This document shows positions 2,492 through 33,643 of a stretch of DNA of 64,000 bases, one piece after another; positions within the stretch are counted from its first letter, which is position 1, and each line of letters starts with the position of its first letter. The translations under genes and the position numbers were made by a program. The notes beneath the pieces were generated by a model. The model did not search any database, had not been told where the DNA came from, and saw nothing but the letters and a program-made list of their open reading frames with translations. Origin of the DNA: Dudresnaya verticillata (Eukaryota); NCBI GenBank assembly GCA_977862235.1, contig OZ374557.1, positions 2,356,001 through 2,420,000 on the forward strand, written 5' to 3'.

Positions 2492-2522
2492 CCATTTGCT
2501 ACTCGCACAAGCCGTAGTGATT

Positions 2523-5717: not shown

Positions 5718-5719
5718 TC

Positions 5720-9400: not shown

Positions 9401-9440
9401 AAGGGCGCCGCCACCCCCGCCTCACGACGTTCCACCTCTC

Positions 9441-10054: not shown

Positions 10055-10595
10055 AACACGCATTTGAGCGATTTCAGAATACGACTTTCGAAACAGACTG
10101 GAGTCGAATAGCTATTTTCTGATATCGTTGGAAAGGGGAGCGTCCCCTGAGTACGGTGGTCCAATCCGATTGGCTAACGGACCATTCCTTCGAAAGTTAT
10201 GGCGGTTTGCGTGAATTTACCCAAAATATTTCTAGGTATTCTGAATTTCAATTTCCTTGCGTCGAATTGGCCCGGGTGGTCCACTCCGCGGTCCGCACTG
10301 GGCCAAATTGGAAATTGCCGGCCCGCAGCATGCCCCTCGGCGCGCGCGCTGCATGCGCGCCACATCGCCCATCTGGCCCGCCCCGCGCGTGCTCGGCGCC
10401 GCCTGCAGACTACCCCGTCACCAGTTTTCGGCTTTCTGGTGCAACGGGTGCACTGTGCTCTGCGCGTCTGTGCACAAATCCGCACGCGACCGCATACAGA
10501 CTGCCTCATCACCCGCCCCCCGCCCCGTGACGCACAACTCCTTGGGCAAAATCTACTGTCGCGGGTGCCCACCCTCGAGCACACCGTGGATCCCG
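10055..10595 (+). repeat. Left terminal inverted repeat (~541 bp)
   Basis: aacacgcatttgagcgatttcagaatacgac...ccgtggatcccg; imperfect reverse complement of 33094-33639, with about the outer 66 bp matching exactly. Confidence 0.95.
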
Positions 10596-11363
10596 CTGCC
10601 GTCACCTCGTCAGCGCGCCCTGCCCGTCGCTCCCCGACCGCGCTGCACGACCCGCCCGCCCGTATTTCTCTACGATGGGACGCCACATGCCGATTTCATG
10701 ACAACTCGCAGACACAAGTATGGCCATTCCATGACACGCACCCAACACTACGTAGTTGGTTAGGTAATGACAATAAAATGTATAAGCCTGCAGCTGTTTC
10801 CCGGTTAACCACGCGCGCGACCGATTGCGTTGTCGACACTCCAAAGGTTCCCCGTTCCAACCATGTCCGTAGGCCCATCCATTAAGGCAACTTTGCAAGC
10901 TCCATTGGGGGAAAGTAAATGCGGCGTTTGGTAAGCTCATTCAACCTTGAGGGGGATCGCTTCCAGTCCGCCACCATTGCGGTTGATAATAGCGTCCAAA
11001 CTCCCACGACCCTGCTCCCCAGACGCGTCAGAGTTAATAACATTCAGTGTACTCAATAACTGAAGCACTGACAATCTACGTTGTTAAATGAGCAGGACGT
11101 GCTCATGAAAGGGACATGTTTCCGCTGTTGGCAACATTTGTTGACCCACTTCACATTGACTCGTCAGCTGCCATTGCGGGTTCCTGGTCCAGGTATGGTT
11201 CTGCCTGCAAGGCGTAGATAGCCTCTTCATGGAAAGGATATAGTACATGCGGAAATTGCCAATGCACCTCGGTTGTTTACTGCCTGTTCCATGCGTCTCA
11301 GTGTGTCTTAAAGCATAATTGTGCCCAGCTCGTTTCGTAATGCCTGAACGAGTCTGAGTACAG

Positions 11364-12329
11364 TTGGGAGGGATACCATCAGCCGAGGTTACTGAAATGA
11401 AGACGAGAACCAAGATAGGTCGTTCTGATACCGCTATTGATAACTCTATTTTGCCGGCGCATACTCCCCTTCCACAATACAGGGCTCGTGCTCGCATATG
11501 TATTGAAACAAGCGTCGATATCAACATGTGCAGCATTAACTGCCCCGAATACGTGGCGAAGAAGGAATCAATTTGCTGGTCCCAGTTTCGAGAGGGTAGT
11601 GCGTTAAACTTCGCGTGTCTGAACATTCCACGTGGCAGGCATGATGAATCCAATCGTGTGTTTAGGTACAAAAAGTACACGGTATATAGCCCAGCGGAAC
11701 AATAGCGATCCAAGGTACTGATGCAGAAATCCCCCGCTGATGTACTACCCCCGGTGGGAGTTCAAACGCACATCCTCGTACGTAAGGGGAAGATATCTGA
11801 CTTCGTACCTAGGGAGCCTACACGAGAAGTCAGTGCTGAACTGCTTGGGAAGAGCCAGGATCTGTCGTGTCTGGATTTCAATGCCCTGCGCAGACCAGAG
11901 GAAACTGACAAAGATATGGTCCGCCGCATTGGTGAGTCCAACTTACTCGCATTAATTGACAACTGAATCTCCGAAGGCAAGCGGTTCACCGGCCTTGAGG
12001 CATTGGGAATCAGACTATTCGACCGGTCTGTTTTTCCTACATTTATGGAACGCGTTCATGGACAGGCAAATGCAAAGAACTACGGACAAACGGAACGAGT
12101 TGGAGGTTTCAAGACCTTCCTAGTTTATATTCAGCAGAGAGAGGAAAAGAAGCTGATGTCAAATCCCGACACAGCTATTGTGCTGGAAGTACTCTCGCGG
12201 GGACATGGCAAATTCAAAAGCCGCCAGGAGCGTAATTCGTATTACGTCGCTCGTCAAGAATACAACCGTCGACATCTTTTCGTTTCTAACATTACCGACG
12301 ACGAAAGGTACGGCCGTAAGCACACGTAG
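11364..12329 (+). pseudogene. Disrupted ~320-codon ORF of unknown function
   Basis: ORFs 11364-11705, 11721-11966 and 12003-12329 are in one frame, separated only by single stops (TAG 11703, TGA 11964). Confidence 0.55.
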
Positions 12330-12408
12330 TCAAGACCGACGCGCGTCTCCAAGTACTACTCCTTGCTACGCAATCAGATTGATTGGTCGACTTCATCCTT
12401 GGTCGATA

Positions 12409-12942
12409 TTAAACAGACTTGCATGACGAATCTTTCTTATACATGACGCGCACGTCATGCTCCGCACGGGCCACCCTTGCCTCCTTTACCTCCACAGTCC
12501 CTTCTGCGTCAGTTTTGGCAAAATGCCAAGTCAGGAGAAGGCGGCACATTCGCTCCATCTCCCGTACTGGCTCGCTTGCCAGGCGAATCGCCTCGACCAA
12601 GACGGCATCGATTTCATGAGCTTCGGATCCGGAGAAAGCATCCCCCGATACGTAATCAAGCTTCCTCATACCCCCACGGTATACCACTGTGAGCATGTTC
12701 TGGTCATGATCGTATTGACCCATAACGACCTCAAACTCCCGAGCACGCTTCTGTTCCATGACTCTTTCTTTATCCTTCACCTCCAAGGATCGCATTATGC
12801 GTTCCGAAAATTGCAAAGAGTCACCATTAAGGCGGCGCTGCTGCTCTGCCAATCGACGCCTCAATTCACAGCGCATGAGGTCATGAAATGCGCAGAAACC
12901 TGACTGTATGTCGTCCGGCAACACCGGGAGGTCAATGAGCAT
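12409..12942 (-). CDS. Hypothetical helical protein (177 aa from ATG 12942)
   Basis: Charged helical composition (ELRRRLAEQQRR...KERVMEQKRAREFE); the frame is open further upstream to 13233. Confidence 0.45.
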   Translation of the reverse strand: MLIDLPVLPDDIQSGFCAFHDLMRCELRRRLAEQQRRLNGDSLQFSERIMRSLEVKDKERVMEQKRAREFEVVMGQYDHDQNMLTVVYRGGMRKLDYVSGDAFSGSEAHEIDAVLVEAIRLASEPVREMERMCRLLLTWHFAKTDAEGTVEVKEARVARAEHDVRVMYKKDSSCKSV

Positions 12943-14366
12943 GTCGATAGTAATAGGAATGACTACACTTCGGCAAGAAATCCTCTTCCCTGTGTGTACA
13001 GCCGTATTTCTGTTCCTCAGTACCGTAGAGGAGGTCTGTGAAATGCAACGATTGCGCGCTTTTAAACGGAAAGTAACACTTGTAGCTAATGGGTTTTGCT
13101 GTGTACGAGGCTTAGGCATTCTCTGTATACAAATAGGGATATATCTTCGATTGGACACGTTCAAATTCCGGTAATCAGAATGACCGTACTGTACCGAAGC
13201 ACTTATACCGGCAGAAGTATGAGGACCCTGCAAAAATGCAGCCTCAACTTGCTGGATAGTTCACATACACCGCCCAGATATTAGGTGGAACCGCAGATCA
13301 GACTATCTGAACCTCCGCAGAATAGGGCTTTTCTGTATTGCTAGAACGAGGACATGTTGACCTGTGCACAATTCTGGAACGTATTTACAGGGATCACTTG
13401 GACACACTGGTACATGCTGTATTATGGTCTCACGTATGGTATTAATCATTTCCCTGACCTTGATATTACTTGTATCATTGGGTAACACGCATACTTACGT
13501 TTGTCGTGGCATCCGATGGCAGATTGTGATCATCAGTTTGTTTCGGTGCTACAGTGGTCTTATGATGACCATATCTGCAGGGTGGAGGCGCAGGTTTCAG
13601 GAAATGCCAATGTTAAACGACTCTGTGAAGGCGGACAGTAACCTCTTGCCAATTCGAAAACCCGAGGTTATTCCTATCGTTTCTGAGGAACACGTTCATG
13701 TTGGTACAATTGGAATGACTGTACGTTTGCGAATCGTCTACATCACCCCAGTCCAAGGGAGTGTGCCTACGCAGGCACACGTACTTCCAATTTCCCCTCC
13801 ACGTTGTGGAACTATTTCGTATGCCCATTTCTTACCCGCCTTGAGCATTGTTTAGATACTCTGGTAGGGGAGCTGTGAATCGGAATCACTGTACGGTTGG
13901 ACGGCTAGAACTGACTTCCAAATGGTTTCTGAGAAAGTACGAACTTAGGGTGAACACCCCTACCGCACAATACGTCGACATATTTACCGACGACCAATAG
14001 AACCCTGCAGTGATTTGTAGCTTCATGAAATCTCGCGCAATGTATCAGGGCACCACCAATGGTACAGGGCTCTAACTATCTTTCCGGAAAAGTTAAAACC
14101 GTACGTGAGGCTGTTAGTCATGCGGACAAACTTCGTTTCCAGGTTAAAGCTGGAAACCGGCATGATATATCCTGTCTTTCAATGCCGTGACCACTGACCT
14201 GACTACGGACATATTGTTGTAAACCCGAAGTGCTCTTCGTGAAAACCGCAACGCTTATCCCGTGCTCATCAGCTTAACGCAACCAGTTGGAAACACCTAC
14301 GGCAACCAGTTGGAAAGACGTACGGCGACCGTTTTTTCAAAAGTGCTGAATTATACTTTTGGCTGG

Positions 14367-17296
14367 ATGGGCAAGAAACGTTCAGGAAAGGGTGCTGTTA
14401 CACAATCTGAAGCGGACCAAAATTGCTCTTCTGCAAGTATGGGGAGGGCATTGTTTTCTGACGTAATGGAGGGTTCCGTGAATATGAGAATTGACCCCAG
14501 GGAGTGCTTCCCGCTAACGGCAATAAGACCCGTGGCGCGCTCCGGAGTGGAACGCCTCAAAGCTCGCATTCATCTACACTCATCAGAGAAGAAAGGCGGT
14601 GAAGGGACTATTGGGTACGTTGCCGGGTCTGACTCTCCAATTGTCATCGAAATGACAGGGTCTCTGCGGGGTCACGTCGTTGCGTATTTCAAGAATATGA
14701 AAGGGCAAGGGAAGGAGTACACGGAGGAGGAGGCTTTGGAGAAGGCAAACAATCGCTCCAAATGGTACGGCATTATTGACGGCTTGCGTAGACATTGCGT
14801 TATTTTGGAGTTAATGGAGGAGTTCCCAACAGTCTGGCAGTCTTTCGCATGGCCTGTAACGATTTTGAAGGGTGGGCACAACGTCTATGAGCTCCGGCAG
14901 CTGGCAAGACATCAGAATGAGAAACACGACCAGGGATACTTTATCGAGACTACATTTTTTGACCTGGTCCGCGGTCTGCGGGAGGAGGCGGAGAGGTTGC
15001 AGACCAAGACTGGGAAACAACGAAATGCCCCAAAAATTGCGGAGGCGTATGACGGTTCGAAGTTATATCGGAACAACACCATTAAACAGACTGCTCAGAC
15101 AGTTATGCGGTTGGATACGAGAGTAATTCACGCAACTGGACAAATTCCAAATGAGGAGAGACCGGATATAGCTGCAAAGATGACAGGAGACAAGGAAGGG
15201 ACAACACTCGACAAGGACGGAGCAACGAGGACGGTTGACTGCCGCGTCACAGAAAGTTCACCCACATTTCATCACAGAAGTCTGCAATCGCCTTCATGAA
15301 TGGGAACAAACTGGATGATGGCGTAGAAATACAGATTTCATCTTTGTACCGACTACGCGAAGTACATCGACTTCAGAGGTTCCGGTCAGTCACCAGCTTT
15401 CAGACTCTGGAACAATTTGGAAGGGCGAAGGCAGCAATGAGGGAAGCACGGAAATTCTAACGCCTTATCGAGAGCCAGAGTTGGCCTGAAGGTATGAACG
15501 TCATTCGCCAGAATCTCCTTCGTTCCACGAAGCAGGACCACGAGGTGCGTGCAAACTTCGGAAATGACCACGATGTGCTCAAGCTCTTGATAGCCGTTTA
15601 TCGAAGGGAATGCCTGCAACAAGCTCCAGTTAAGGAAAAGAAATTCAAGCACCAGTTCCAAGCAGAAACGGATTCTGGGAAAGATACATCTCTAGACATA
15701 GGAGAAAGTGACAGGCCAATAGTTTCAGCTTCCGAGATTGATAAGACGAGTTCTGAAGTTGATGGAAAAACTCAAGGGGGGAAAGAAAAAGACTCGAAGG
15801 GGGCCCTTGGTGGCCAAAAGCAGTCGGAAGCCGTTAAGGAGACTGTAACTGACACGCAGAGGCAGATTACGCAATCGGTCCTGGATCCTACAGACGACAA
15901 CGACACAGGCGCATTAGCTGGTAACAATGACATCCCGAACGAGTGTATTGGACCGGGTAGTCGTTCTGTTTCTTCAACACGCAATTCGGAGAGACTGGAT
16001 ACCGGTTCTGATCTGGAGGGGAAGGACCCGCTTTCCAAATGCAGGATACGAACATATCAGATGAAGTGGGAGGAATATGACCAATCAATCAGGAATGAAT
16101 GCAGTCCTCTATTTGACGTCGTGCTTGCTGACCCTCCGTATGGAACCCCGAAGGGAATGTCAAATGCTGGAACTGCATACGCAAACCATTTCAGTGAAGA
16201 AGACATCAAGCGCCTTTGCGAGTTTTGTAGACGTTTTGTGAAGGAGGGTGGTTGGGTGTTTCTGTTCTGCAGCTTCTTGAAATTCCCGTTGTTTCAAAAG
16301 GCACTTACCGACAACAATTTCGATAGTCCGCAGTACCCTTTCTTACTCTGCAAAGACACAACTACTGTCCAGATAAGTCGCAAGAAGGGACTGGAGAATG
16401 CGGCTGAGGCAGCAGCCTTCGGAAGACACAAGGGTACATCCAAGAACTCTTTCTCTCCAGACCTCTCCAGCCCGTACCACGTCATCTCGTGTAAGGAGCG
16501 ACGAACTTTTGCTGTGATGACCTCTGTTCCCGTACCCAGAGATAAGCTCATGAAGCCAGGGACTAGCAGGGCACCAGTTCTGACGGAGGAGAAAAATCCT
16601 GATGCACTTAGTGAGATCATCACACCCTTCTGCCCTGAAGGCGGCTCGGCCCTAGAATCTCATGCGGGTACAATGACTACAGGCATTGCCTGCGTTCGGA
16701 CAGACAGAGAGTGTTACCTCGTCGAAAGAAACCCGGAAACATACAGACTGGCTCGTGCACGCCTGCACCGCATGGCAGAGGAGAAGCAGAACGGGTCGTA
16801 TCAAGATTCAGGGGTCCAAGCACAGAAGCGCTCGGCAAAACAGATGGACAAACAGCCGGACACGAAGAGGGTACGCACTGATCAGTCTGAAAGGGAATCA
16901 CAGACTCTAATGATGTCCCCAGGTAAGCAACAGTCTGGGAAACGTACAGGAAAACCTAGGGAGAAACCGCTGTCATGCGATCGACCGCAACGCAAAGGTG
17001 GTGACGCAGTTTGGCTGCTGTGTGGTCCAGATAAGGTTGGGAAGGCAGTACTGCAACCGGGTAACGACGCCCACGGACTGAAGACAGAAATACACCAGCA
17101 AGGGTTGCGGGAGCTCGGCAAGGAGGGAGACAATCTCGTGGCTGTATTTTCCTTCAAAGTTCGCGATGCGTTCGCGGAGAGGCCGTACAAGTACACTTTT
17201 ACGGGTCCGGAGGAACCGCCAGCACTGCTGCGAGACTTAAACGCATTCTTCGTATGGGATCTTCACATGATGGAGGGTTGTGATAGAGAGCCATGA
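14367..17296 (+). pseudogene. ParB/Srx-like domain + beta-class N6-adenine/N4-cytosine DNA methyltransferase fusion (~975 codons; one frameshift, one stop; MTase domain itself uninterrupted in ORF 15494-17296)
   Basis: ParB-like WYGIIDGLRRH; MTase motif IV FDVVLADPPYG (DPPY 16130-16141), RRFVKEGGWVFLF, EKNPDALSEIITPFCPEGG, motif I variant SALESHAGTMTTGIAC, CYLVERNPETYRLARARL. A 1-nt frameshift at ~15248 and TAA 15458-15460 separate the two ORFs. Confidence 0.85.
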
Positions 17297-17392
17297 AAGT
17301 CTGCTCCATCTATTTTTGGGCTGTACCGGATGTACAGTCTGCCAGTCGAGGGCGGCGGACGGTCCACTGCACATTTCCAGCTGGAAGGAACT

Positions 17393-17662
17393 ATGGCATC
17401 CATGCACGCTCGTCGCGACCAAGGCAGCGGAAGTTCGGATGTCGACCCTGCTCGCCTACTGTCCGAATTGCGTGCTCTTCGAGGCGAGGTGGAAGGATTA
17501 AGGACGGCAGTGGAAAGAGCTCGACAACGAATGAGGGCGGTGGTTGCCGCTGTTATGGACCGATTGTCCAGAGTAGTGATAAACGCCGTTTATATTGCCC
17601 GAAGTGCTAGAAGAAGGCTGCGGTCAATCGGAAGGGTAGATACAACGCAACGAAGAAGATGA
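17393..17662 (+). CDS. Small coiled-coil protein (89 aa)
   Basis: DPARLLSELRALRGEVEGLRTAVERARQRMR heptads; resembles the ORFs at 17737 and 32791. Confidence 0.5.
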   Translation: MASMHARRDQGSGSSDVDPARLLSELRALRGEVEGLRTAVERARQRMRAVVAAVMDRLSRVVINAVYIARSARRRLRSIGRVDTTQRRR

Positions 17663-17736
17663 GCCCGACCTGGACTTCGACATTGAGAATCAGTTTCAAG
17701 CTTCCATGTGACTTTTTCAGACTTCGTACAAAAACA

Positions 17737-17988
17737 ATGCCGCTACCTGTCAATCCAACAATGGCCGAAGTGCAGCGAGAGTTGGCACTTCTACGTGCTG
17801 AAATCTACCATCTTCGCAACACTGTGCGGGAGCTAGAAACCGAAGTGCAAAGGGCATTTGATTTCGTAAGACACCTTGTGCATGACTTCGGGAGAAGGAC
17901 GTTGAGAAAACTTCGATGGTCAGGATCCGGATTCAAGACCTGCATAGTTCCGTTCGTGTCGTCAGAGGACGTCAAGATCGCAATGTAG
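17737..17988 (+). CDS. Small coiled-coil protein (83 aa)
   Basis: aaaacaATG context; NPTMAEVQRELALLRAEIYHLRNTVRELETEV heptads. Confidence 0.5.
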   Translation: MPLPVNPTMAEVQRELALLRAEIYHLRNTVRELETEVQRAFDFVRHLVHDFGRRTLRKLRWSGSGFKTCIVPFVSSEDVKIAM

Positions 17989-18262
17989 AAGACCCTTCTT
18001 CCGATTCCGTCTAGAACTGAGTAGACTGCCATCGGGCTGTAGTAAAGATGAGAACGGCCCTAGCACTTACCATCAAGGGTTGCCACTGCGGGAAGCCTGG
18101 AGACCAGCAGTGGAATCCATTGCACACATTTGTAATGGGACACGGCCATTGCGAACTATTCGTCTTTGCCCTCTTCCGTGAATAACTAGCCCCGAAGGTC
18201 CTTCGCTTCGCTGCTCGCGTTTCGCGCATGCACTCGAGTTCCGCAGACTTAGAGATTCAGCC

Positions 18263-18580
18263 GTGCGGAATCAGGACATCGACCAGCTCGAAGTGCTTTT
18301 CGGTTTTGAGGCTCGCAAGAGACTTGTTAACTTCAAGCTCGATTTTAGTCGCCTACCGTATCTCACGTTAGAAAGTTTGGCTCCTATTGCACAGGCGCAA
18401 AAGGCAGAGCCTGACCCGTTTCAGTCATACACGCATGTCTCCGAGCTCAGGAAGGAACTTAGAGAACTCCGTCTCGCGTTTGCGGGCACGGAAGTCGCGT
18501 CGGAGCATAGTGACTCGGTTGAAGGTGCGCTTATTGCCGCCTATGAGGCGATAGAGTATACCCTGCGCATTGGTTCTTGA
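18263..18580 (+). CDS. Hypothetical helical ORF fragment
   Basis: VSELRKELRELRLAF helical segment; no ATG start, possibly a fragment. Confidence 0.3.
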   Translation: MRNQDIDQLEVLFGFEARKRLVNFKLDFSRLPYLTLESLAPIAQAQKAEPDPFQSYTHVSELRKELRELRLAFAGTEVASEHSDSVEGALIAAYEAIEYTLRIGS

Positions 18581-18909
18581 TGTCTTGGAGCGCAGGCATC
18601 CGGAACTTGACACCAGCTGTGGCTGTCCGGGTAGAGATATGCGCCAGAGTCCACCCCTTGATATGATAAAGGCGTCAGACATGTCGCCCTCACAAATGCG
18701 CCGCCCCGAATCACTTAAGTCTCAGGTTCCGGGAGTGGTGGTGATGAGCGCCTAGGTCATTTGCAGTTGGGCAGTGTCTCTACCAGCGGTTTATCAATTT
18801 TTCGCGCGGAGTGGAGCACTGAATCGTTGGAAGCTCTCTCGCCGAAAACCATAATACTGTTCATGAAACGGCTGCATGCCCTCCGTGTGCATTGGGTGAT
18901 TCTCATCAT

Positions 18910-19794
18910 CTATGAAGCTACCTTCTGCAAGTCTCTCACCTCATCAACAACGCGTAACACATCGTCTGCAACCAGTCGCAGTAGCAACTCTCGCTTTCCT
19001 CTACTTTCAGCATCATGCCCATTGGTCGCCTTCTCAAAGTTTTCGATGCCAGTTGTTTTCTTCAGCAAGCGCATGCTTTCCATCACAGCAGCAACGATTG
19101 TCTCTCCCTTCGCGGCACGCGCAAAGAACTCATGCTTGACAAAGACATTATCACCAGCTTCGTCAGAGGCTGGAAACAACGCTGCCTCATCTCCGAGGTA
19201 GTCCACATGCGCGCGATAGAACACAGGAACGATAGATGGCACGCGGGCGAGAACTTTCGCAGCATGCGCGCAGCGTTTCTGGAAGCACATATCTGATATC
19301 AGCTCGCAAATCGTCCAAAGCTTGGCGGGAAACTCGGGCGACACAATGAAGACACCGACTCGAGCTTTCTCCATTGCCGTATCCATCGAGCCGTGTGCGT
19401 CATTGCCAACTGCGAGACTTTCCCTGTCTACGAATGCTGATACGCCCCGGTCGCGGAGCATCCTCCACAAAGACATAGCCATCGTCTCCTTGTCCAGCCC
19501 ACTGTGGCACATGAACACGTCATACCCCGACGCATTGAGATAGGCCTGCTTTTCCAGGGCCATCCGCATCTCGTGCTTCAGTGATGGGAAGCCTTTTCCG
19601 AGTATGATCGCGCTCTTGTGCAACGATCCCAACTCCAATCTTAGTGGGACTGTAGGTTGGGCTTCATCACGCTGCGAGAGAGCGTTCCACTTCTCAGACT
19701 GCGGAGTAGCTTCGCGCAAAGTCCAACTTTCGTCCGGTACCCACCGTCCCTCATGAATCTCAGTCCGACGCCGCCGCTCCCGCCCCCGGACCAC
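18910..19794 (-). CDS. Toll/interleukin-1 receptor (TIR) domain protein
   Basis: YDVFMCHSGLD, LRDRGVSAFVDRESL, VGVFIVSPEF, WTICEL (conserved Glu codon 19303-19305), IVPVFY. Frame open across the domain; true start uncertain. Confidence 0.9.
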   Translation of the reverse strand: MVRGRERRRRTEIHEGRWVPDESWTLREATPQSEKWNALSQRDEAQPTVPLRLELGSLHKSAIILGKGFPSLKHEMRMALEKQAYLNASGYDVFMCHSGLDKETMAMSLWRMLRDRGVSAFVDRESLAVGNDAHGSMDTAMEKARVGVFIVSPEFPAKLWTICELISDMCFQKRCAHAAKVLARVPSIVPVFYRAHVDYLGDEAALFPASDEAGDNVFVKHEFFARAAKGETIVAAVMESMRLLKKTTGIENFEKATNGHDAESRGKRELLLRLVADDVLRVVDEVRDLQKVAS

Positions 19795-20540
19795 AACACA
19801 CTTCCCCTCTTGCTGCTGGTCTTCCTGGCTGCGCCGCTTCAGGTTTGCGCCGTCGAGCTTCCACGGTCACTGCTTCTCGCGCGCAACTATTCAGACTGCC
19901 CCGTCTTCCTGCCAGACGTCGCCCCCCGGGCGCCGGCCAGACCCGCATCGTCGGTGGCCAGCCGCCATGGACTTTATGCGCTCCCATCTCGTCTCGTTCC
20001 ATGCGGAGGGCTGCGGGGCCTCCCTCATATCCAGGCGTTGGGCTATCACAGCTCGTAGTGTATGCAGCTGACAAGCGTCCTATGCAGATTGCCATCGTCT
20101 TTTTCGGCTATGGCTGCGCACGGCCGCACACGGCCGAAAATCCCTGGCGGCTACACACGACAAACATCACAAGCACCGACGCCGACGGACCCTCCAAGCG
20201 GAACAACGTCACCGCCCACGCAGCCATCATCTGCAGCGAGCGCTAAACCGAGCACGACGCCGGATGCGAAGGGAGGAAGCAGTGGGGACGGCGCGGGGGC
20301 GAGGGCTCGACCTACGCTGTGAAAAGGGTTCCAGTCGTGTGCTGCCCTTGTCAAGGGCACTGGTGTTGTGTGGTGTGCGTTTTCTTGAGTGGTATGCCAG
20401 TGCGTTTTCAGATGATGTCGGGCTCGGAGCGGTGCGGCTGGGCGTCTCGGGAAATGTAGCAAACGCAGGAGGACCAAAGTGAAAAGCTATAAACGAATAT
20501 GAATATCAGCCAATAGCTAATGGCGCCGGAGAAATGTAGT

Positions 20541-20730
20541 ATCATTTTCTTAGCTTTTTGATTTCCTCCTCCGCGGGAGCTACATAGCTCCCGTGTTTCC
20601 CGAAATCACAATACCTAAGAAAATAGATATTTACACTCGCGGCATTCCGTTAGCTACATAGCCCCCATTGTCGCCGAAATGGGAAACCTAAGAAAATAGC
20701 TTTTCGAATCTGTCGGCGACAGGGAGCTAC
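20541..20730. repeat. Cluster of short inverted/direct repeats
   Basis: ctaagaaaatag at 20614 and 20688, inverted at ~20541-20553; hairpin cgggagcta-ca-tagctcccg (20574-20593); further gctac copies. Confidence 0.7.
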
Positions 20731-20737
20731 CGTCCTC

Positions 20738-22737: not shown

Positions 22738-23730
22738 AAATGATGTCTCTGTCCAACATGTAAGTGCTCGTTAAAATAGTTCATGATAAAGAGTGCAGCG
22801 GATGGAGTATGGACGCTAGTAGGGATAGCATCCGCATGCGGATGCATTCGTAGTGAGAACTAAACCGCTGTGGTGGACTTGCAAATCCAAAGATGAACTT
22901 TCCATTTCACGAAAGAGCTGCAGTGCAGCGTGGGTAGCTTTCTAAAAAGAGCTCCTTGTGATTACAAAGTCGAGATGATACGCGTCCGCACCATTTCAAG
23001 CTCACGATGGGACCGTCTATCTCGAGATGTGGCATGTATTCACTGTTTGGAAACGATAATGTTAAATCCCAATTGTAACCACAGGTGGCAACGCCAGACA
23101 TACTTCGATTTGGGCGACGCGGCAGCAGATGGAGGTTTCTTTCCTGGTGGGCTTCAGGTGTCATGTGAGTTGCTTGTCACAAGAATATGTTGAGCAGGCG
23201 TGTTGATGAGGAGGTTGAACCTCCTTCGTTTGGAAACCCTCACACTGAGCCCCGAGACGACATGAGCATCAAGGTTATTTCAGTCGAACACCGCAAGCTG
23301 ACGTTGCCCGTTCGTGACGTATAGACTCATTGCACACCTTTTGCTGTGCACGAAAGCACTGGCGCAATGCCTCAATCTCCTTTTATTACTAGTGAAGACA
23401 ATCGCATCCATTCTGCGATACCCCGAGTAGCTACTCGCTAGCACGCTACCGTTCTCATGTGGTCAGCCAAAATTTCATACTGTACCAATGCAGAAGAGAG
23501 ACCAGTGGTTCTGTTTCGCTTACTTCATTTGCATGCTGCAGGCATTGAAGGTGTTTATCTCACGACTGCTATTCTAAAAGTAATCCGATTTACCCAGCAA
23601 CGATGCTGCCTCATGACGCAGCGTGCACGCTCTGTTCCATAGCGTTACATGCTTTCACTCTAACTCTTTCCCATTTCTGCACCCAGAATATTGACACCCC
23701 TTTGACGCTTGTTTCGGCTTCACCTCCGTC

Positions 23731-26700
23731 TCACTCGAGGCTAGTTGCTTTCCATGTCATTTGCTCCTGGTCCCCCGCCTCTACAGAAGTACTAATTTCC
23801 GGATCGTCTCCTCTCTTTTGCATCTCTAGGGCTTCCCTGATCTTTCGCTGCACCGTGACGGGTATTCCAGAGTTGGTTAAACGCGCGAACTCCACTAAAA
23901 CCGACTTCCCCGGGACCGTATCGCTCCACGGTTTGACATGTCCATTTGCATCGGTTATTCTCGCCTTCCGATAACGCCCGGTGAAAGTATTCCCTCGAGT
24001 ACTCCTTCTATGGTACCACTCTACTTGAAAATTGGTAACCTTGCCCCCCCGCCCGTCTCCCAATTCATCACCTGCCCAAGCCAGAACGGGCATCCTTCGG
24101 TACAATCGTCGGCTAGTACGGCTACAAAGCTGTTCTTCGTGTAAGTGAGGTCCTGTTCCACTACATTCTCAGCATCTGACCCCGATTCCAAGGGTGCGCT
24201 AGGGCCGCTCCCATCCGGTTTGTAAGCCCCTTCCAACTCAAACACATCCGCCAATGCCCAGTGGAATGGGTCTTCACGGTCCTCGTAAACTCTATCACGA
24301 AGTGTCAATAGCTTCTGTAGCTTACTGTGATTGTTGATTCTGGTCTCGGCGGATCGTAGACGCTTGGTTACTTCGTGTTCATCTGGCGGTGCTCGACAGG
24401 GAGTCGGTGGAGTCCGGTGCAAGTTGGGGGAAATAACAAAAATCGCCCTGGCCATCTCGCGTATGTAACGGTTTCCAAGAGTCTTTGCAGCCCCTCTTCA
24501 CTTCGCAGAGAGTCGTGAACGTACCGGCGTCTGTGTCCTTAGCTCCTTCGGCACTGAACCTAAAGTATCGATATTCTGAAATGGGCCCGGTACGCCCGAG
24601 GCATCTGGTCTCTTTGCACAACCCGGAGAAATTAATAATGTGCAACATCTCCGTGACACGCGGTTGAGGAGTGTATGATTGCCGTAGTTCGTGCATGAGG
24701 TCGTCCATGATAATGGCGTCTCGAACGCGTAATCTCTTCGAAGTGCAGCTGAACACTTGATCGATATCGGCATGCGTGTGACCGATGGGGAGAAACGACG
24801 CATGCACTTCCGGAAATACACCCATAGCAACGAGATACTCCAAGTAGCCGAACATAAACCTGTTCATATTTTCCCTAGTACAGTTGTCGACCCGGAGGAA
24901 CAACGTACCCTTCAGTGGCATCCTGTCTCTGCGTGCTATCAATACGCCATGCAAAGCTTAGATGACATGGTTTGCGCCTGTTTCGAACTCGGCAGTCATC
25001 GTGAAAACGTTTAGATGTGGGACTTGGCCATGCTGTAAAACGCCGATTACTTTGGCCTTCATTCCGTGTCCGCGTGTGTCCTTCACCTTGATGTGGAAGT
25101 GTGACAGTCCAAATGCGTACTGGTCAGCACCGTCGATGATGAGTGAGCAATAGTTGTTCGGATACATCGAAGCCATCTCACACTTCTTCCGATATTCTGT
25201 TCGCTCCTGCATGACCATTCTCACGTGCCCTGCCCGCCGCTCGCGAAGCGCTTCGGTTCCCGCTAGATCCGTTGCCGCTTTTGCGAGAAGATCTTTTATC
25301 TCCTCGCACTCGGAGCATTTTGCAAACCGGTGAGTTCGCCTGACCTTAATTTGCGGACAGCTGCGGAGCCAGATACTATAAAAGTAGCTCTGTGATGGTG
25401 TTGCTCTGTTAGGGTACAGAGTGCGGTGCTCAGTCACAAACGTGTTATAGACTGCGAGCTTCTCATAAAAGGGGATGTGGATTTCAGCCTTGTCTGGTTG
25501 CGAATCACCAGACATTTCTGCGAGGCGCTCCAAGAACGACGTTATCACCTCCATCTGTTCCGTAGACGTACCACCAACTATCAGCCCCCTCCCTTTTCTT
25601 TCGCGGCTTTTGTTTGTTCCTTTCACTGCCGATTCCAGATCTCTAGAGAAACCGAAAGCCTTGTCGAGAAATGAGTAACAAACCGGCCGTCCGCTGAAGA
25701 AGTACATGTTGGAGTTGGGTTCCAGTAGTCCCGTGAGGTATCGCTTCCTTTCCGCGCGATTCTTGTCCATCATTTTGCGTGACTCAACCCTGATGTAGAC
25801 TGACTCGATGGTTCCGAAGCATTGTTTCGTTTGGCAGCAGAAAATGTTTGAGATATCCTGCATCTCCATCACCTCCACTACCTTTCTCCTCTTCACAGCC
25901 ATCAAATGCCCCGATGGGGTTCCTTTCGGACGAGGATCATGTCTATAATCCCTCTTCTGGCTCGTCCTAGCACTAGCCTGGCCGTCTCCACGCCCTTCTA
26001 CTGCCATCTCCTCCCCTTCGGAGGGGTGCCGTTCCGGCGTGTCGGAATCAGCATCCTCCCCATCGTCTGCAGTCCCGACGTCAGGATTCTCTTCTTCAGA
26101 AGCGTGATCACGACCTCCCGCACATTCTTCTGCTGTAGTGTCGACGGGATTATTGTCTTATTGTGCGCCGTTCCCGGAATCTCCTTTCTCCCGTTCAGCT
26201 TCGGCTGGTTTTGGAGCCGCGTCATTACTTCCCAGTTTTGATAATCCAGCTTCCGTGTTTTCTATGCCCTCTAATTGGTACGGCCGCGGGCACATACGGG
26301 CGGGACGCTCCAGAGTATAAACCAACGCGGTCTGAGCAACTGCAGCAGAAGGGGGTGTCGAAGGCTCACCTACTATTGCAGCCGGGGGTGTAGACGGAAC
26401 ACGTGGTGTTGCTGGCGGTGTAGTAGTGCGGTCATTACCTTCTTGGTGTGGCTGAGCGCTGGGATCAGACTGACCGGTACGGGTGATTTTTTTCGTCACT
26501 GTCCGCTTATGAGCAAGTCCCTGACCCCCCTACGGCCTGACCGCCTAGTTGACGTCCTGGTACGAACAGTGTGCCTCCCACTCGGTTTCTCCATCTCTAT
26601 CCGAGGGCAAGCTTCCCCGGTCGCCACGCCGGCTTCTCCAGCACCGCTTGTAGGTTGCGGCTTCACAGTGCGGCTTGTTCCTTGTCCCATACATGAATAC

Positions 26701-27175
26701 CCACATTTAGACCAGCTAGAGTGGTGGGGGGAGATTCTATACCGGGATACTTATACATGTACCTCTTGTCCCCATATACATTCCGAATACGGGCATTATA
26801 GATGACTATCCATGTCTCCTTCTTCCGCTGCACCTCTCTTAACCACGTTCCATGCATCTTAACTTTGAATGAACCTGTACTGTCTGCCTCTTCCGGAGAC
26901 GCCGGAGTCATTGGATCAGCCGTACCCACCTCCTCTCCGTTCAGCAACAGCACTACGTTCTTCGACGCGGACATGATTTGCGTGCCAGGGCTGGTTACTG
27001 CGGGCGCGCTTCCGCCCCCCTGTTTGCGAATGGGTTCTTCCGCGGCCGTCTCCGCCGTCGCCGTACCGATAGTCTTGGCCGAGGAATTGTTCCCTCCCAT
27101 CACGGAGACGGCATGTCGGTCGGCAGTGACCGGCCTTTGACGCAAAGCAGTGCGACGTTCTCTTGTGCGAGGCAT
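23731..27175 (-). pseudogene. DDD transposase, Sola/DUF7869-like (~1150 codons; stops and frameshifts)
   Basis: FAKCSEC (CxxC), CSLIIDGADQ (D1), LFLRVDNCTRENMN (D2), SFLPIGHTHADIDQVFS (H...D3). ORFs 26158-26499, 24958-26007 and 24379-24954 share one frame broken by TAA codons; flanking pieces are frameshifted. Confidence 0.85.
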
Positions 27176-28088
27176 TTTGTACCACGATAGCAGTAAGGGC
27201 CTCGTCTCGCTGGGATCAGTGCCGTCAATAGCGCTTTTGAGTACGCGTCGCACGATCGTGAGAAAAGAAAGGGTGGGGGGTCAAAAGCGGCCTTTGGTGG
27301 CGGTCAGCGCAGTGCGGTGGAACAAGAATATCGGGAAGAGAACGCAGTGGGCGCCGGAGTGGTGTCACGTGCTGAAACCTCGCCAGATAACCTCCTATGC
27401 TGTTCTGTGTGCATATGCGAAACGGAATCACCAGTGAGTGAGCAACGGTCTACCTATCGTTAGGCATCTGACCCACTCAAAGGAGGCGTTTCTTCGTCCC
27501 CTAATTACAATATTGTCTGGTCCCCCGGAATGCTTTCGGAACATGTGTGGGCTGCAGGCAGTCGGTCACCGATTTATGGCAAGTATTCTGCTCGTGATGT
27601 GGAATCAGAACGACTGGTGATATTATGCGCTGTCCATGTGCACCGTGCACGGTTCACCACGATTCGGACCTTGTACTAGTATTACCGGTGTATTTTAATA
27701 CATAGCTATAGCGAAAGCATCATCTGAGTGCCGGGTTCCATACCCTTGAATTGGAATCACAGCGATGAGTGACTCGGGATCCCTGCACCACCCGCACTTC
27801 CGGGTGGGAGTCTCAGAATCGGCAGCGAATGGGAGAGCTCTATTATTGTCCAACAATACCCTGGGGCACCTGAGTTCTGACTTGTAGACCAGGAGACCTC
27901 GAGCGCTTGCATCACTCACGTTCACTGCTGTGCTACACAATACATAACGAGAATGCTGCACATAACAGGCTCGAAGTCTTCACATCGCGAGCAAAGCTGA
28001 CTGCGTGATCTGGGGGTGCATTTGGGACTCCTCTACTACAGCTTGCCTAACGTTTATTACAAGCGCGGGACTAGAGGCTGTTTCTGTT

Positions 28089-30340
28089 TCATTTCTGTGC
28101 TGCTGTATTCATATTCGCCAGTTCCGTGTCCCCTGCGCTAGGTGCATCCACCATCGCGTCCATGCGAATGATCTTAGAAGCCACCCTGCGCCTAGCCGCA
28201 TCTTCCTCCTCTGGGACCGCCCCAGCGAACTGCCGCTTGTCCTCGGGTCGCACCGGGAACGGCCAGAATACGGGCGTGTATGTCATCCCGTGATTTCTTA
28301 CGCACCATGCCCGCATTGCAAGCATGTAGCTCGCCTTGCGGTGATATGCAAAACCGGCCGTCTCACCTGTCCATGGCCGCTGTTCCACTGCGTTGGGTTC
28401 GATAATCATCTCTCCGTGTGGAGTCAGCACCACCTTCTTCCCGACATGAGTGTACCCCACGTTTGGTAAATTGGCAACCATGTCTGGATCCACAACTATG
28501 CGCCAGTGCAGAGGCACCACTTCTTTGTACACTCCTGCAAAGTCGTGATTCCCGACTCGAGGTGATCCAGACGTGGACACGAAAATTTCACGTCGGCTCA
28601 CATCCAACTTCACCCATAGATCCAGGCTGCAGATTGTTCCGAGTGCACCTCCTAGACTGTATCCGGTCAAGAATATAGGTCTTTACCTTCTTGCTCTTAA
28701 TTGCCGCACCACTTCCATCACTTCATCTGCAACACTCTTATAGGCAATCGCAAATCGCTTGTGAATCTTACCGTGTAGATATCTTCTGCCGAATAATCGC
28801 TTCAATCGAGTCGTCTCATCTTCACCATAGACACTTGACTTCACCACGTTACGAATATATTCATGGCTCATCCGTAATGATGTATTCGAGTTTCGCATTG
28901 ACGTTGTTCCCTTTAACGTCTCAATGACCCTGTCACTGCAATCAACAACACGTGCTTGAGTATCTGTTGCCTCGCTTCTCACAGCAGCAACGATCTCATA
29001 TTCAAATGGCAACGGGTTTTCTCTAGGAATGAAGCCGTCAAACTTTGCAGTCCCATAATAATAGACATACCCATGCAAAGTTGAACATAATGACGTTCGT
29101 CTGCATCGTAAAGCAGTTTGCTTTCAGCTCAAGACTGTCCTTCGACTCTCTCTTTCTGTACGTAATCGGTTCAACGATTTGTTGTTCCAATTCGTCATCA
29201 TTGTCAACAACAGAGCGGGGGGTTTCTTCATCATTGGCCCATGTGACGTCTTTTTCAGGCAACGGGTACTTGAGGCCGTTCATCGAAGCTTGCTGACTCG
29301 ATGATGAGTCTGAAATGCTGAATGACCATCGAGACCCAGATTCGCCCAGTTCTACGCTTCTGAAAAAACGCTTTCACACCCCCGGTACAATTATGGGGCA
29401 GATTAACATAAGTAGTCACAATGACATAACCCAGCACCAAAAGCCCCGGGCTGTGCGTATAAATCCATGTCAAATCTGCCCTCGCCATGTTGAAGCCAAT
29501 AACCAGAAGAATGATACTTTCACCTTTCGGTCTGCTGAACAGCAGACGAGTGTTCAGACCAATAAACAAAGGGTAGAAAACAAATTTGGTATACAAGAAA
29601 AACCTGAATCCAACCCGTTTGCACCGATGCTTCATGTATGGTGCCTTCTCCAACACATTGGTTGTCTTCCATGCCTCATACCCAATAATTGCGATGAACA
29701 GCAATTCAATGACTGAAAACGGGATACAGAGGAGGAGCTCTACCTTCAAATGGCTCCACACGTGATACGCGCTGAAGTAGAACGAGAAAGCAGCAGCTGA
29801 GAGCATAGACACTTCAGACAGGGTCATGTCCAACACGTACACAATCACAAACTTGGAGACAACGTACGGGATAAGCACGAGCAACTTTGGGATATAGAAG
29901 CCCCAGCCCAATCTCTTAGTGGCCTCCAGAATGCGGTAAGAGTGCAGGCTTGCCCAAAGGTAGAAGGAAGAGAATCCCGCAAAGGCCACATCACGCAACA
30001 CATCACTGGCCACATCCCAATTGTTATACCAATCCGGGAAGGTACTGTAATTCAATGTCCTTTCGCCACCATTTGTTTCTATGAAACGGTTGATGGCATG
30101 AAGAGGGTTGAAGTAGAGTAATGCCATAACATCGAGGAAGAAGACCCAAACCTGCTCATGCGTGATATTTCTGCGCCCTTGTCTCAACAACCGTATTACA
30201 TAGAGGATAGTGAGCGTTAAGAAGAACATACCCGTGAGCAATGTCATTCCTTGAGAGAAATGTTGATACCTCGCAGAGGGCAGGGCGAAAGATATGTTCA
30301 AACTGTACGCATAGAAAAACTTGCCCGGGGGAACGGTGGT
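28089..30340 (-). pseudogene. Class-3 lipase with multi-pass transmembrane N-terminus, pseudogene
   Basis: TGYSLGGALGTI (GxSxG), SGSPRVGNHDF, WRIVVDPDMVANLP, YTHVGK; upstream TLKGTTS and IHKRF; hydrophobic ORF 29255-30301. Ends approximate. Confidence 0.85.
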
Positions 30341-30369
30341 CGTTCCGGAACTCCTTCACCGCCACCACC

Positions 30370-31517
30370 TTCACCAATGATTGCCTAACGCAGAATGTTG
30401 AATCTGCCGTGGCAAACAGCGACTCCCCAGGTGAAACCAAGGCCCTTGGAGACGCGTTCATCGTCGCAACGGGTCTGGCGGTTGATTCCGACGGCCTAGG
30501 GTCGCTTGAAGGCTGTATGCAGGAGCTTCTGCTCTGGGTCAAGAAGGAGTGCTCTATGGACAATGATCTTGTGGACAAGATTTGCAAACGGCTCTGCTCA
30601 GGCGTCTCCAGCGGTAATTTCAGACTGCGTTGCATGGCTTTGATTTACAACAGAGTTACTCTGTCAACGAAGAGCACGTGCAAAAGCGGTGCTCGCTCCT
30701 TGGAGCTACAATTTCCTTGGCGGTCAGTGTTGGGCTAATGCCGAAGACTGTCGACACCATTCTGCCGAAAATCGATACTTTCTCACGCCAGTTGCAGGTT
30801 GGTGTCCCAGAGAAGCGCAAATATGTATCGGGTGTGATATGAGGCTCTCAAGTTGGCAGACATGGCTAAGGACGCATTTTCTTTCAACATTAAGCAGCTT
30901 GGTTTGTATTGCAGTGATACGGATGAAGATTATCGGCCCGTTGAAGATGCTGATGTAGATGTAATTGTCCAGGCTGTTCTACTCCCGAAGTTGTATCGAT
31001 TTGACACCTTGCTTGAACTAGATTCAGTTAAGCGATTCGGAGCGCAGGACGGCGACCAAAACTATTGTTCGAGCTCATTATCATCTTTGTCCGCGACGAT
31101 CTTGCTGTTTTCACGGAGTTCAGAAGCAGGAATGATGCTCTTCTTGCAAAGTACGAGATTGACGTGGTGATTGCGGAAAACAAGATGAGCCTGCTCACAT
31201 TTGCTTCACTTGGAATAGACTGTCAGGATCTCGCATACAGTATGACTGCGACTGCTCTGCAAATTTCCGAGGGCGAGGTCGAGGATTGGGTTACCTGTGC
31301 GATCAGCTCAGGTCTGGAGGATGCGATGATTAAGCAGCTGAATTCGTCGGTCGCGATTTATCGATCAACGCAGCGTATGTTTACGCGAGAAGAGTGGCAG
31401 CCGCTGCCTGAGCGCATCAACATTTGGAAGACTAATATCGGAGATCTACTTGCACAGCTGAGGAACACCCGACCAGCATCCACTATAGCGGGTTTTGGCA
31501 GGAACAAAGGGTTGTAA
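30370..31517 (+). pseudogene. EIF3M: Translation initiation factor 3 subunit M pseudogene (5'-truncated, frameshifted)
   Basis: LVDKICKRL...FRLRCMALIYN; AVLLPKLYRFDTLLELDSVK; PCI domain KMSLLTFASL...EVEDWVTCAISSGL...STQRMFTREEWQPL...WKTNI. Confidence 0.85.
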
Positions 31518-31623
31518 ATTCGGTAGTTGATGTGCCGGCAAGACGTTCTGAGCATATGTGCACCACCTCATTTATTGTTCTAGCGGCTGCGATTACGCTG
31601 CATTGACCGCGAGAAGTTTGCTA

Positions 31624-32385
31624 TTATGAGTAGTGCTTACCGCATGTTCCCATGCGATGTACAGCTCTTGAAGCTTGCAAGGTATCGAGTGCATTTATAC
31701 CCTCCTTCAGCATCTTGTCCCACCAAGACCAGGTCAAACCCTCAACAATGTGGTAGAACCAAGGCGTAAGACGAAGAGTCGAGGAGATCTGCGCCTCCTT
31801 GAAAAGCCCCTTCAATTCTTCTCGAGTAACATAGCGTACTGCTCGTACGTCGTTTGGTTCAGGAGCAATATCGCTATAGCGCTACGTCCTTCACGCCCAT
31901 GAACACGTAATAAATCTCATGCTCACCCCACACCCCTCCGTCATTTTCACTACGGTAATGAATGCGAGTCATGTATTGCAGGTCGTCCATACCGACCTCT
32001 CCCCCTTTGTCACCGAGCTAGCTCATGAGACAGCTTGCGAATGGCAACACGCATGACCCCTCCAAGCGCATCTCCACTGTCCTGCCGACCAAGCTCAGCA
32101 GGCGTGTGGAGCGGATGAGCGCATACGGTTTTCGTCCAGAACGACAGGAAGGTGATTTTCTTCGCTGCACGTTATTGGAGAAGCATGCGCCCCTTGGTAT
32201 CGAACAAAATCACCGAGAAAGCACGATGCAGCGGCAGGTTTTTTGAAACCATGGTGTGTGTGCACCTGCAGATGGGACTCCTTCTTCGACATGCTACCAA
32301 CAACTCTGTCCTGTAGATCAGTGAGGACGACCACCTCTGACATTAGCCGAACTTGCTCTGGGTCCGACCCTGTCAACGCGTGCAC
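31624..32385 (-). pseudogene. IDI1: Type I isopentenyl-diphosphate isomerase pseudogene
   Basis: DPEQVRLMSEVVVLTD..DRVVGSMSKKESHL; LHRAFSVILFDTKGRMLLQ*RAAKKITF..FWTKTVCAHPL; AIRKLSHEL; LRLTPWF...WWDKM. Confidence 0.92.
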
Positions 32386-32790
32386 AAACCCCGTCGTGCT
32401 TCCTGCAAATCGTCGGCTTGTTCAGGAAGGATTCAGTTGATGATTGAAGTGGTTACAGCGATCGCTCGAAGCAGCGTCATGCGAGAGTCATGTGTCGCCT
32501 ATTACTGCTGCATTGGCGAAGCTAACGCGCGAACGAGTGGATGTCGACCTCAGTCAATGTGCGAGGCTGTCTTGTAGGACTTGCAGTCCTGAATTAGGTG
32601 GTTACTGTTTCTTTGACGTGCACTACATCAACTACATCAGCCCTGCAGGTAATTGCGTAACTTCATAACACAAAACCTGAGAGTTACATCTCTATCGAGA
32701 TCATTTTCAGGGCCGCTACCAACATGGAGTGACATGCGTCTGAACAAAAGGAAGCTGACCGAGGCCGGGGGTCGGCGATACACAGCCAGA

Positions 32791-33060
32791 ATGCTACCGA
32801 CCGACCCAGCCCCGCTGGTGCTGGTTGAAGAGGTCCGTGCCCTGTGCGCTGAGGTGCACGAGGCTCGCGCGCTGGCTGCGGAGGAGCTGGACACAACTGT
32901 CTGGCTCCGGGTCCAGATGATGGGGTGGGCTCAAAACATGATTGAGAGGGCTGGCCTGGTTGGAGAGGGGGTGATGCGAGGGGCTGTAGCGGTGATGGCT
33001 CTTTTAGGGTGGGAAGTGCCGGAGGAGTGGACGGTGGAGGACCCTGGTTCAGATGTGTAA
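32791..33060 (+). CDS. Small helical protein next to the right inverted repeat (89 aa)
   Basis: DPAPLVLVEEVRALCAEVHEAR resembles DPARLLSELRALRGEVEGLR of the 17393 ORF. Confidence 0.45.
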   Translation: MLPTDPAPLVLVEEVRALCAEVHEARALAAEELDTTVWLRVQMMGWAQNMIERAGLVGEGVMRGAVAVMALLGWEVPEEWTVEDPGSDV

Positions 33061-33093
33061 GTAGCAAGAACAGTAAAGGGGTTAGTTGATAAT

Positions 33094-33639
33094 CGGGATC
33101 CACGGTGTACACGAGGGTGGGCAACCGCGACAATAGATTTTGCCCAAGGAGTTGTGCGTCGCGGGGCGGGGCGGGGGGGCGGGTGACGAGGCAGTCTGTA
33201 TGCGGTCGCGTGCGGATTCGTGCACAGACGCGCACAGCACAGTGCACCCGTTGCACCAGAAAGCCGAAAACTGGTGACGGGTAGTCTGCAGGCGGCGCCG
33301 AGCACGCGCGGGGCGGGCCAGATGGGCGATGTGGCGCGCATGCAGCGCGCGCGGCGAGGGGCATGCTGCGGGCCGGCAATTTCTAATTTGGCCCAGTGCG
33401 GACCGCGGAGTGGGCCGCCCGGGCCAAATCGACGCAAGGACATTGAAATTCAGAATACCTGGAAATATTTTGGGTAAATTCACGCAAACCGCCATAATGT
33501 TCGAAGGAATGGTCCGTTAGCCAATCGGATTTGACCATCGTACTCACGGGACGCTCCCCTTTCTAACGCTACCAGAAAATAGCTATTCGACTCCAGTCTG
33601 TTTCGAAAGTCGTATTCTGAAATCGCTCAAATGCGTGTT
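33094..33639 (-). repeat. Right terminal inverted repeat (~546 bp)
   Basis: cgggatccacggtgt...aatcgctcaaatgcgtgtt, followed by TSD ATGG at 33640-33643. Confidence 0.95.
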
Positions 33640-33643
33640 ATGG

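Follow-up and report, generated by a model that had tools for sequence, protein, structure and literature searches.

A 23.6-kb cut-and-paste transposon, likely of the Sola1 kind, with a ParB-methyltransferase gene and decayed host-gene cargo

What kind of mobile element carries 23.6 kb of DNA, a methyltransferase gene included, and did it move as one unit? This question is raised by a 64,000-nucleotide stretch of contig OZ374557.1 (positions 2,356,001 to 2,420,000; here called the window), in which a preliminary description, made from the letters alone, had placed a giant cut-and-paste element of an alga. We consider it probable that the window holds a cut-and-paste transposon of 23,585 bp (10055..33639; the 23.6-kb unit) that lies in a Gypsy retrotransposon. 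The element is likely of the Sola1 kind, and its host is likely a florideophyte red alga. Its ParB-methyltransferase (ParB-MTase) protein would load on the element's own palindromes and methylate the element's own DNA.

Ends and target site of the insertion

Comparison of the window with itself yielded a single long inverted pair, 10055-10595 (+) and 33094-33639 (-), with 517 of 547 aligned columns identical (95%) and 7 gap columns. The outermost 67 bp of these two terminal inverted repeats (TIRs) are identical without a mismatch; the left repeat, 541 bp long, starts with AACACG, the right one ends in CGTGTT, and the inverted match ends exactly at the ends of the element. In the flanks, the tetranucleotide ATGG was read on the plus strand directly outside both ends (10051-10054 and 33640-33643), a 4-bp match with a chance of about 1/256. 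The inverted termini of about 540 bp and the 4-bp target site duplication (TSD) proposed in the preliminary description are both borne out, and together they support its giant cut-and-paste element of an alga.

Flank translation and domain searches also confirmed that the element splits the pol gene of a Gypsy. On the left, a protease-like region (9300-10054, +; recognized by eye, with no Pfam match) ends in ...VTVNTSW. On the right, pol resumes with GGLCFLENHPKP... and continues through matches to RVT_1 (reverse transcriptase), RT_RNaseH, integrase and chromodomain (33640-37240, +; decayed). When the duplication is allowed for, the two halves are offset by one base in frame, as had been noted before; the offset is unremarkable, since the host Gypsy is full of stops and shifts. 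Each arm, examined alone, lacks an inner inverted end and a duplication of its own. The arms therefore bound a single insertion of 23,585 bp.

The transposase and the ParB-MTase gene, here and in other genomes

The element contains a DDD-type transposase gene (23731-26529, -) with the motifs IIDGADQ, VDNC, GHTHADIDQ and CxxC. Its sole Pfam match is DUF7869 (PF25273; E 1.4e-34), in agreement with the DDD transposase reported earlier. Among 7995 candidates scored, 75 homologues were found, with up to 58% identity and mostly 750 to 950 aa long. D301, D383, D423, D425 and the CxxC pair are kept in at least 95% of 57 aligned transposases, and the four aspartates are kept in the window copy as well; the aligned DDD block has no conserved terminal glutamate, and D423 and D425 are alternatives for the last aspartate. 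The structural model (predicted local distance difference test [pLDDT] of 81) has an RNase H-like core by its pattern of strands and helices, and Foldseek returned Mos1, TnsB, integrases, Argonaute and RNase H at E values of 0.006 to 0.05, with the transposase and integrase folds at 0.006 to 0.03. Searching PDB sequences with the transposase profile yielded no relevant match. Compared with intact relatives, the aligned part of the window gene contains one stop (24958-24960) and two frameshifts (near 24455 and 24060), which the preliminary description had not mentioned. Judged by these lesions, this copy cannot make transposase and is non-autonomous. As a side observation, one fragment of a eukaryote-type transposase (P0069) is annotated as a protein of a Bacteroidota metagenome-assembled genome on a 1951-bp contig; the assignment is probably host contamination of the bin.

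The second core gene (14367-17296, +) encodes a ParB-fold domain fused to a beta-class N6/N4 DNA methyltransferase, recognized by PF01555, by profiles and by fold. Its C-terminal part matches PF01555 (N6_N4_Mtase) above the cut-off (E 5e-7). When the family profile was compared with PDB, the adenine methyltransferases DpnA (E 1e-18) and CcrM came first, with the N4-cytosine enzyme PvuII weaker. The order of motifs is DPPY (motif IV) and then ESHAGTMTTG (motif I, FxGxG-like), as in beta-class N6/N4 methyltransferases. A frameshift near 15250-15290 and an in-frame stop (15458-15460), again beyond what had been described, interrupt the gene upstream of these motifs, and no active product would be expected from this copy.

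Relatives of the methyltransferase were taken from an HMMER library search (best 150 of 297), and 48 long proteins (at least 780 aa; returned relatives plus three locus proteins) were compared. The fusion proposed in the preliminary description is real, because the same N-terminal domain is present in 46 of the 48. The model of this domain reached a pLDDT of 86. With VIA-align, the first 12 rows were all of the ParB/sulfiredoxin fold (5k5d, Z 8.7, root mean square deviation [rmsd] 4.6, 177 residues aligned), and PadC aligned at Z 6.8 (rmsd 2.7, 97 residues). The top Foldseek rows were Noc and ParB at E values of 0.007 to 0.1 (best, Noc at 0.007), and sequence identity to solved ParBs is 8 to 18%. 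We take the stretch G139-L-R-R142 of the window protein to be a GxxR-like ParB motif. None of 3187 candidates from a word-based search proved to be a longer relative of the ParB part, which marks the limit of that search's sensitivity, since the HMMER library search found such relatives. No SET domain was matched in the window open reading frame (ORF) or in 21 relatives scanned. Long relatives among P0103-P0254 have the catalytic aspartate replaced (EPPS, ALPS, QVPR and others), their long frames being otherwise intact; this branch is probably inactive. An unnamed domain of about 90 aa at the C terminus of the window protein (about 17000-17270) is also found in a 170-aa open frame just upstream of the transposase (26663-27175, -; BLASTP E 1e-11, 30%; no Pfam name) and recurs in many of the methyltransferase relatives.

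The same pairing of genes was seen in unrelated genomes. A metagenome scan covered the best 80 loci of at least 549 relatives (at least 600 matches); most loci are short, and the 11 whose sequence extends 4 kb or more to one side of the transposase served as the denominator for linkage. Among the matches listed, a ParB-MTase gene stands beside the transposase in 7 of these 11, which supports the methyltransferase as the element's own module, as had been claimed, and as a family trait rather than a chance neighbor. The profile found the gene in L001 (where it is cut by the contig end), L009, L019, L020, L027 and L029. The seventh locus, L025, came from a distant query and was read by eye (ParB motif, DPPW and motif I), with only an OTU domain scored by Pfam. 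Elsewhere, L062 has a ParB-like protein and no matched MTase, L042 has a weak SET match (E 0.05), and nothing was recognized in the transposase flanks of L008 and L061; no MTase gene was found in the 69 shorter loci. The two genes are divergent in L001, L009, L019, L020 and L025, tandem in L027 and convergent in L029 and the window, and the GC content of the loci is 34 to 48%. The pair, which recurs across this range of GC content and in three orientations, therefore characterizes a lineage of wide distribution. On viral contigs, none of 58 pattern matches was a relative. Contigs of equal length (11185 and 11236 bp) occur in the cluster lists of both proteins, a hint that the closest transposase and MTase relatives lie on shared contigs; one such match, of 4334 bp, leaves no room for both genes, and the hint was kept out of the linkage count.

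Several of these loci have features of their own. L020 holds an intact-looking two-gene element of a eukaryote with 34% GC (1092-8342), with a 1276-aa ParB-MTase (DPPF) and a 943-aa transposase, adjoined by a sirtuin-like frame recognized by eye. In L025, the accessory gene (711-4283, -) is a 1191-aa fusion of an OTU deubiquitinase, ParB and MTase (DPPW), divergent from the transposase. L027 (2360-5746, +) and L029 (4513-5970, -) carry MTase-SET fusions like PAG2 of Plavaka elements beside a DUF7869 transposase.

A nested palindrome array inside the window element (20470-20740), with twin AGCTACATAGCT-like cores, is a candidate ParB loading site by its site count and folding. It has 8 TAGCT/AGCTA sites in 250 bp, compared to a mean of 0.29, and DNA folding of the strand gave a z score of -6.7 (0 of 200 shuffles). 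The region was chosen after being seen; it is the top 300-bp interval of the first 37.7 kb, narrowly (25 versus 22). Rfam gave no match in window positions 1-38000. In L020, L027 and L029, the top interval lies between the transposase and the MTase and consists of two copies of an 18- to 28-bp palindrome inside a longer imperfect inverted repeat (folding z scores of -6.0, -12.6 and -10.3, respectively), and L001 has a single hairpin between the two genes. The palindrome sequences differ from locus to locus. The palindrome score of L061 was discarded as due to a microsatellite. In L062, palindrome arrays (1270-1379 and 4805-4862) flank a 1158-aa ParB-like ORF with an unrecognized C-terminal part, and in L042, twin palindromes (6177-6406) are followed by a SET-like ORF (6401-7906) whose C-terminal part resembles a 2-oxoglutarate (2OG) oxygenase by eye.

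Family membership, role of the accessory protein, and cargo

The label Sola1 is likely; the element was likened to Sola1-1_Ec32 of Ectocarpus by its described features. Sola1-1_Ec32 is 21,549 bp long, with AACCG-CGGTT ends, a 282-bp TIR and a 4-bp TSD, and on the strand opposite its transposase it carries a ParB plus N4/N6 MTase gene of about 1,000 to 1,100 aa, for which self-modification has been proposed (Dinatale et al. 2025, PMC12477816). The window element matches it in giant size, in its imperfect TIR, in TSD length and in the opposite strands of the two genes, and its AACACG-CGTGTT ends are similar, not identical. Whereas Sola1-1_Ec32 belongs to a brown alga and is listed as autonomous, the window element is likely red algal and its copy is broken; the cargo of the former is one extra Ectocarpus-specific gene, that of the latter a Toll/interleukin-1 receptor (Toll/IL-1R) domain ORF and four host-gene wrecks. 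Traits of the Sola superfamily are matched as well: the 4-bp TSD, a DDD-type transposase of RNase H fold (the fold matches being weak), and TIRs within the range of 11 to 1124 bp given for the superfamily (PMC10741241).

Giant red-algal elements of the Plavaka (EnSpm/CACTA), Mutator and Zisupton types carry the accessory genes PAG2 and PAG3. The Plavaka elements are 17 to 19 kb long; PAG2 is a PF01555 MTase-SET protein, PAG3 is a ParB-2OG oxygenase, inverted-repeat arrays beside PAG3 have been proposed as ParB binding sites, and PAG genes are said to move between transposable element families in Florideophyceae (Petroll et al. 2025, bioRxiv 10.1101/2025.02.11.637652). The window element is like these in uniting a PF01555 methylase, a ParB domain and inverted-repeat arrays in a large red-algal DNA transposon, and unlike them in its transposase, in having ParB and MTase in one gene and in having no detected SET domain. 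A Plavaka or EnSpm (CACTA) identity, which would call for CAC-type ends, a TSD of 2 to 3 bp and an EnSpm transposase, was rejected on the AACACG ends, the 4-bp TSD and DUF7869 as the sole Pfam match of the transposase; the EnSpm elements of Ectocarpus have CACCC, CACTG or CACAG ends and 2-bp TSDs (PMC12477816). A Plavaka cassette of separate PAG2 and PAG3 genes was rejected on the single ParB-MTase gene. Bacterial ParB-parS and phage ParB-MTase loci (Iyer et al. 2016, PMC4738411) resemble the window gene in the ParB/sulfiredoxin fold with a helical region after it and in the beta-class amino-methyltransferase, which has DpnA and CcrM as relatives. Unlike them, it has a eukaryotic transposon setting, and no ParA partner was seen.

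The preliminary description had regarded the combination as undescribed. This did not hold, as the design of Sola1-1_Ec32 (PMC12477816) and red-algal N6-MTase/ParB transposons (Petroll et al. 2025) have been published. The precedent extends to the core and not to the host-gene cargo: no red-algal Sola1 with ParB-MTase and host-gene cargo was found in the full-text literature searched, and Supplemental Table 6 of Petroll et al. 2025 may already list Sola-type carriers. The name DUF7869 was not found in the full-text literature searched. As the design has been published, one dead copy of it is no surprise in itself. Few transposons have chromatin-writing enzymes of their own, and in the literature found the ParB-MTase class is a proposal that awaits testing. 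With this locus the class gains a member that is likely red algal and has exactly placed ends, together with a specific candidate binding site and intact relatives (L020, P0260 and P0273), and the locus shows that a segment of several host genes can be held by an element of this type. What it contributes beyond the published design is the host-gene cargo, the broad spread of the gene pair, the frequent loss of the catalytic motif and the candidate internal ParB site.

Bacterial ParB loads at palindromic parS sites in a CTP-dependent manner and slides along DNA as a clamp. By the established chemistry of DDD/E enzymes, the transposase would have bound the 541-bp TIRs, excised the element and cut the target with a 4-bp stagger. 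Pieces of host genes would have been captured as passengers. The present copy, being dead, would move only with transposase supplied in trans. The internal twin palindrome may be a parS-like loading site for the ParB-MTase. ParB-guided methylation of the element, more likely at adenine, would then keep it expressed or mark it as self. We propose this role for the accessory protein tentatively, as the least secure part of the explanation.

Several observations weigh against this explanation. No Foldseek match of the transposase model fell below an E value of 0.001, and rank 1 was an unrelated carboxylase; the matches of the N-terminal ParB-like domain did not reach 0.001 either. The TSD of Sola1-1_Ec32 tends to end in A (PMC12477816), which ATGG does not, and ATGG, as one site, lies outside the AWWT/AWDT preference reported for insect Sola1. 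Within the window, no independent insertion is seen, as the sole other copy shares the flank. The 10 longer loci that were scanned yielded no complete TIR pair, and a TIR and TSD search around L020 gave only short pairs at chance level. Three of the seven MTase loci (L009, L019 and L025) lack the palindrome peak, and two loci in which no MTase was matched (L042 and L062) show it. Finally, a strict DPP[YF] motif is present in only 14 of the 48 long relatives, with the aspartate kept in 27 and replaced in 21. Methylation is therefore not universal in the ParB-MTase family.

The main rival to self-methylation holds that the accessory protein is mainly a DNA-binding or clamp scaffold, which bridges the distant ends or shields the element, and that methylation is dispensable. 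Many of the 21 relatives without the catalytic aspartate also lack the aromatic residue, yet they have long intact frames; L062 has its ParB-like protein without a matched MTase; and likely inactive MTase domains are retained in DIRS1 retrotransposons (Iyer et al. 2016, PMC4738411). However, the window copy and the relatives nearest to it have retained DPPY and a motif-I-like S-adenosylmethionine-binding loop, and the same holds for the distant L020 (DPPF) and L025 (DPPW). A role mainly as a scaffold is rather unlikely in our judgment. More doubtful than either role is a wider picture. In it, a eukaryote-wide DUF7869 (Sola1-like) lineage would use bacterial ParB-parS logic, loading at the twin palindrome, sliding as a clamp and writing a private adenine or N4-cytosine mark, and would so enable elements of 20 kb and more to stay active and to ferry blocks of host genes; a second branch would keep the clamp without catalysis.

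About half of the interior of the element is host-gene-like sequence. The preliminary description had listed four decayed host genes, all of which proved to be interrupted. Two are well supported: a membrane class-3 lipase gene (28089-30355, -; Lipase_3, E 2e-15) with 2 frameshifts and 2 stops, and a type I isopentenyl-diphosphate isomerase (IDI) gene (31560-32440, -; human IDI1 in PDB, E 2e-14). The other two are weaker, namely, an eIF3m-like gene (30300-31517, +; eIF3m_C_helix, E 2.7e-4, and PCI, E 0.004, both below the cut-off) and a heavily decayed two-pore-channel-like fragment (21400-22740, +; Ion_trans, E 4.5e-4, below the cut-off; TPC3/TPC2 in PDB, E 0.002 to 0.006). The Toll/IL-1R-domain ORF named earlier was recovered at 18910-19866 (-; TIR_2, E 3.6e-10; TIR, E 5e-8). 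Of 31 matches of the lipase, the best belongs to Chondrus crispus (48%, E 2e-83), and further named ones include Gracilariopsis, Pyropia and Hildenbrandia; because of this best named relative, the host of the element is likely a florideophyte red alga.

The lipase, eIF3m and IDI genes are packed into a single block of 4.4 kb, which has the look of a segment lifted from a chromosome. Together with the channel piece and the Toll/IL-1R-domain ORF, they would be captured passengers in the style of Pack-MULEs, which also hold decayed fragments of several host genes between TIRs and are mobilized in trans. Pack-MULEs are mostly 1 to 2 kb long, of Mutator type and with longer TSDs, whereas the window element is 23.6 kb long, with a 4-bp TSD and two core-gene wrecks of its own (Arkhipova and Yushenova 2019, PMC6431247). 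Counted by eye, the eIF3m, IDI and channel pieces have about 3 to 6 or more lesions per kb, compared to about 0.7 to 1.4 in the core genes, with the lipase intermediate at about 2. On this rough count, the heavier decay of the three pieces suggests that they were captured before this insertion.

These counts bear on a second alternative, in which a compact two-gene element of about 6 to 10 kb jumped, the host-gene pieces arrived later in place and the 23.6-kb unit at no time moved as a whole. A single insertion site is on view for that unit, and in related loci the two genes are 0.4 to 2.2 kb apart with no cargo between them. Later arrival nevertheless appears improbable, given that the decay fits earlier capture, that no internal inserts bounded by TSDs or repeats were found and that giant Sola1, KDZ and EnSpm families with fixed cargo have been published (PMC12477816).

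Somewhat less probable again is that the transposon belongs to another DDD/E superfamily with 4-bp TSDs (Sola2, Sola3, Kolobok or an unnamed group). DUF7869 is tied to no superfamily in the literature found, ATGG is not AT rich, and the likeness to Sola1 is one of described features. Against this stand the AAC..CG ends, the long imperfect TIR, the 4-bp non-TTAA TSD, the size and the accessory gene, all of which match Sola1-1_Ec32, whereas Ectocarpus Sola2 ends in GGCGG and the Kolobok/Sola3 candidates in Ectocarpus have TTAA TSDs (PMC12477816). Neighbors in Atlas are commonest in Streptophyta, which fits the moss element Sola1-1_PPa being given as the best match of the Ectocarpus element. That two short independent miniature inverted-repeat transposable elements flank ordinary or rearranged host DNA, for which the host-gene-like half of the interior could speak, is largely refuted and may be dismissed: neither arm is self-contained, a single TSD brackets the whole, the Gypsy pol continues across it, and a matching transposase lies inside.

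Tandem duplication and remaining features of the window

The window contains a 34.87-kb tandem duplication (2868-29136 corresponding to 37744-64000, with 99.83% identity), on which the preliminary description was silent. Within it, self-comparison revealed a second copy of the element (44929-64000, +), flank included, that is cut by the end of the window. Because the flank and the broken frames are common to both copies, the second is not an independent insertion. Differences between the duplicated units cluster at 4149-6162 and 20054-20544; possible sources are gene conversion from other copies, haplotypes and an artifact of assembly. Positions 2868-7400 were considered as a long terminal repeat common to tandem Gypsy copies, and this was dropped because, by eye, the boundary has neither a TG start nor a polypurine tract.

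Other open frames lie within the element. A 283-aa frame (12409-13260, -) had no Pfam match, no usable Atlas match and no match in the 80 loci. The small coiled-coil ORFs of the preliminary description are present as open frames: three short, coiled-coil-like ones lie in one region (17297-17662, 17611-17988 and 18182-18580, all +; no confident Pfam match), with mutual similarity that is not significant (E 0.05 to 0.5) and with unproven status as genes. One more short, coiled-coil-like frame adjoins the right TIR (32653-33060, +; no Pfam match).

Outside the element, the 3′ half of a different chromodomain Gypsy, with 68 to 72% nucleotide identity to the host Gypsy, occupies window positions 1-2450, before the first duplicated unit. 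A near-perfect 34-bp palindrome lies at 6778-6811, upstream of the gag region of the host Gypsy.

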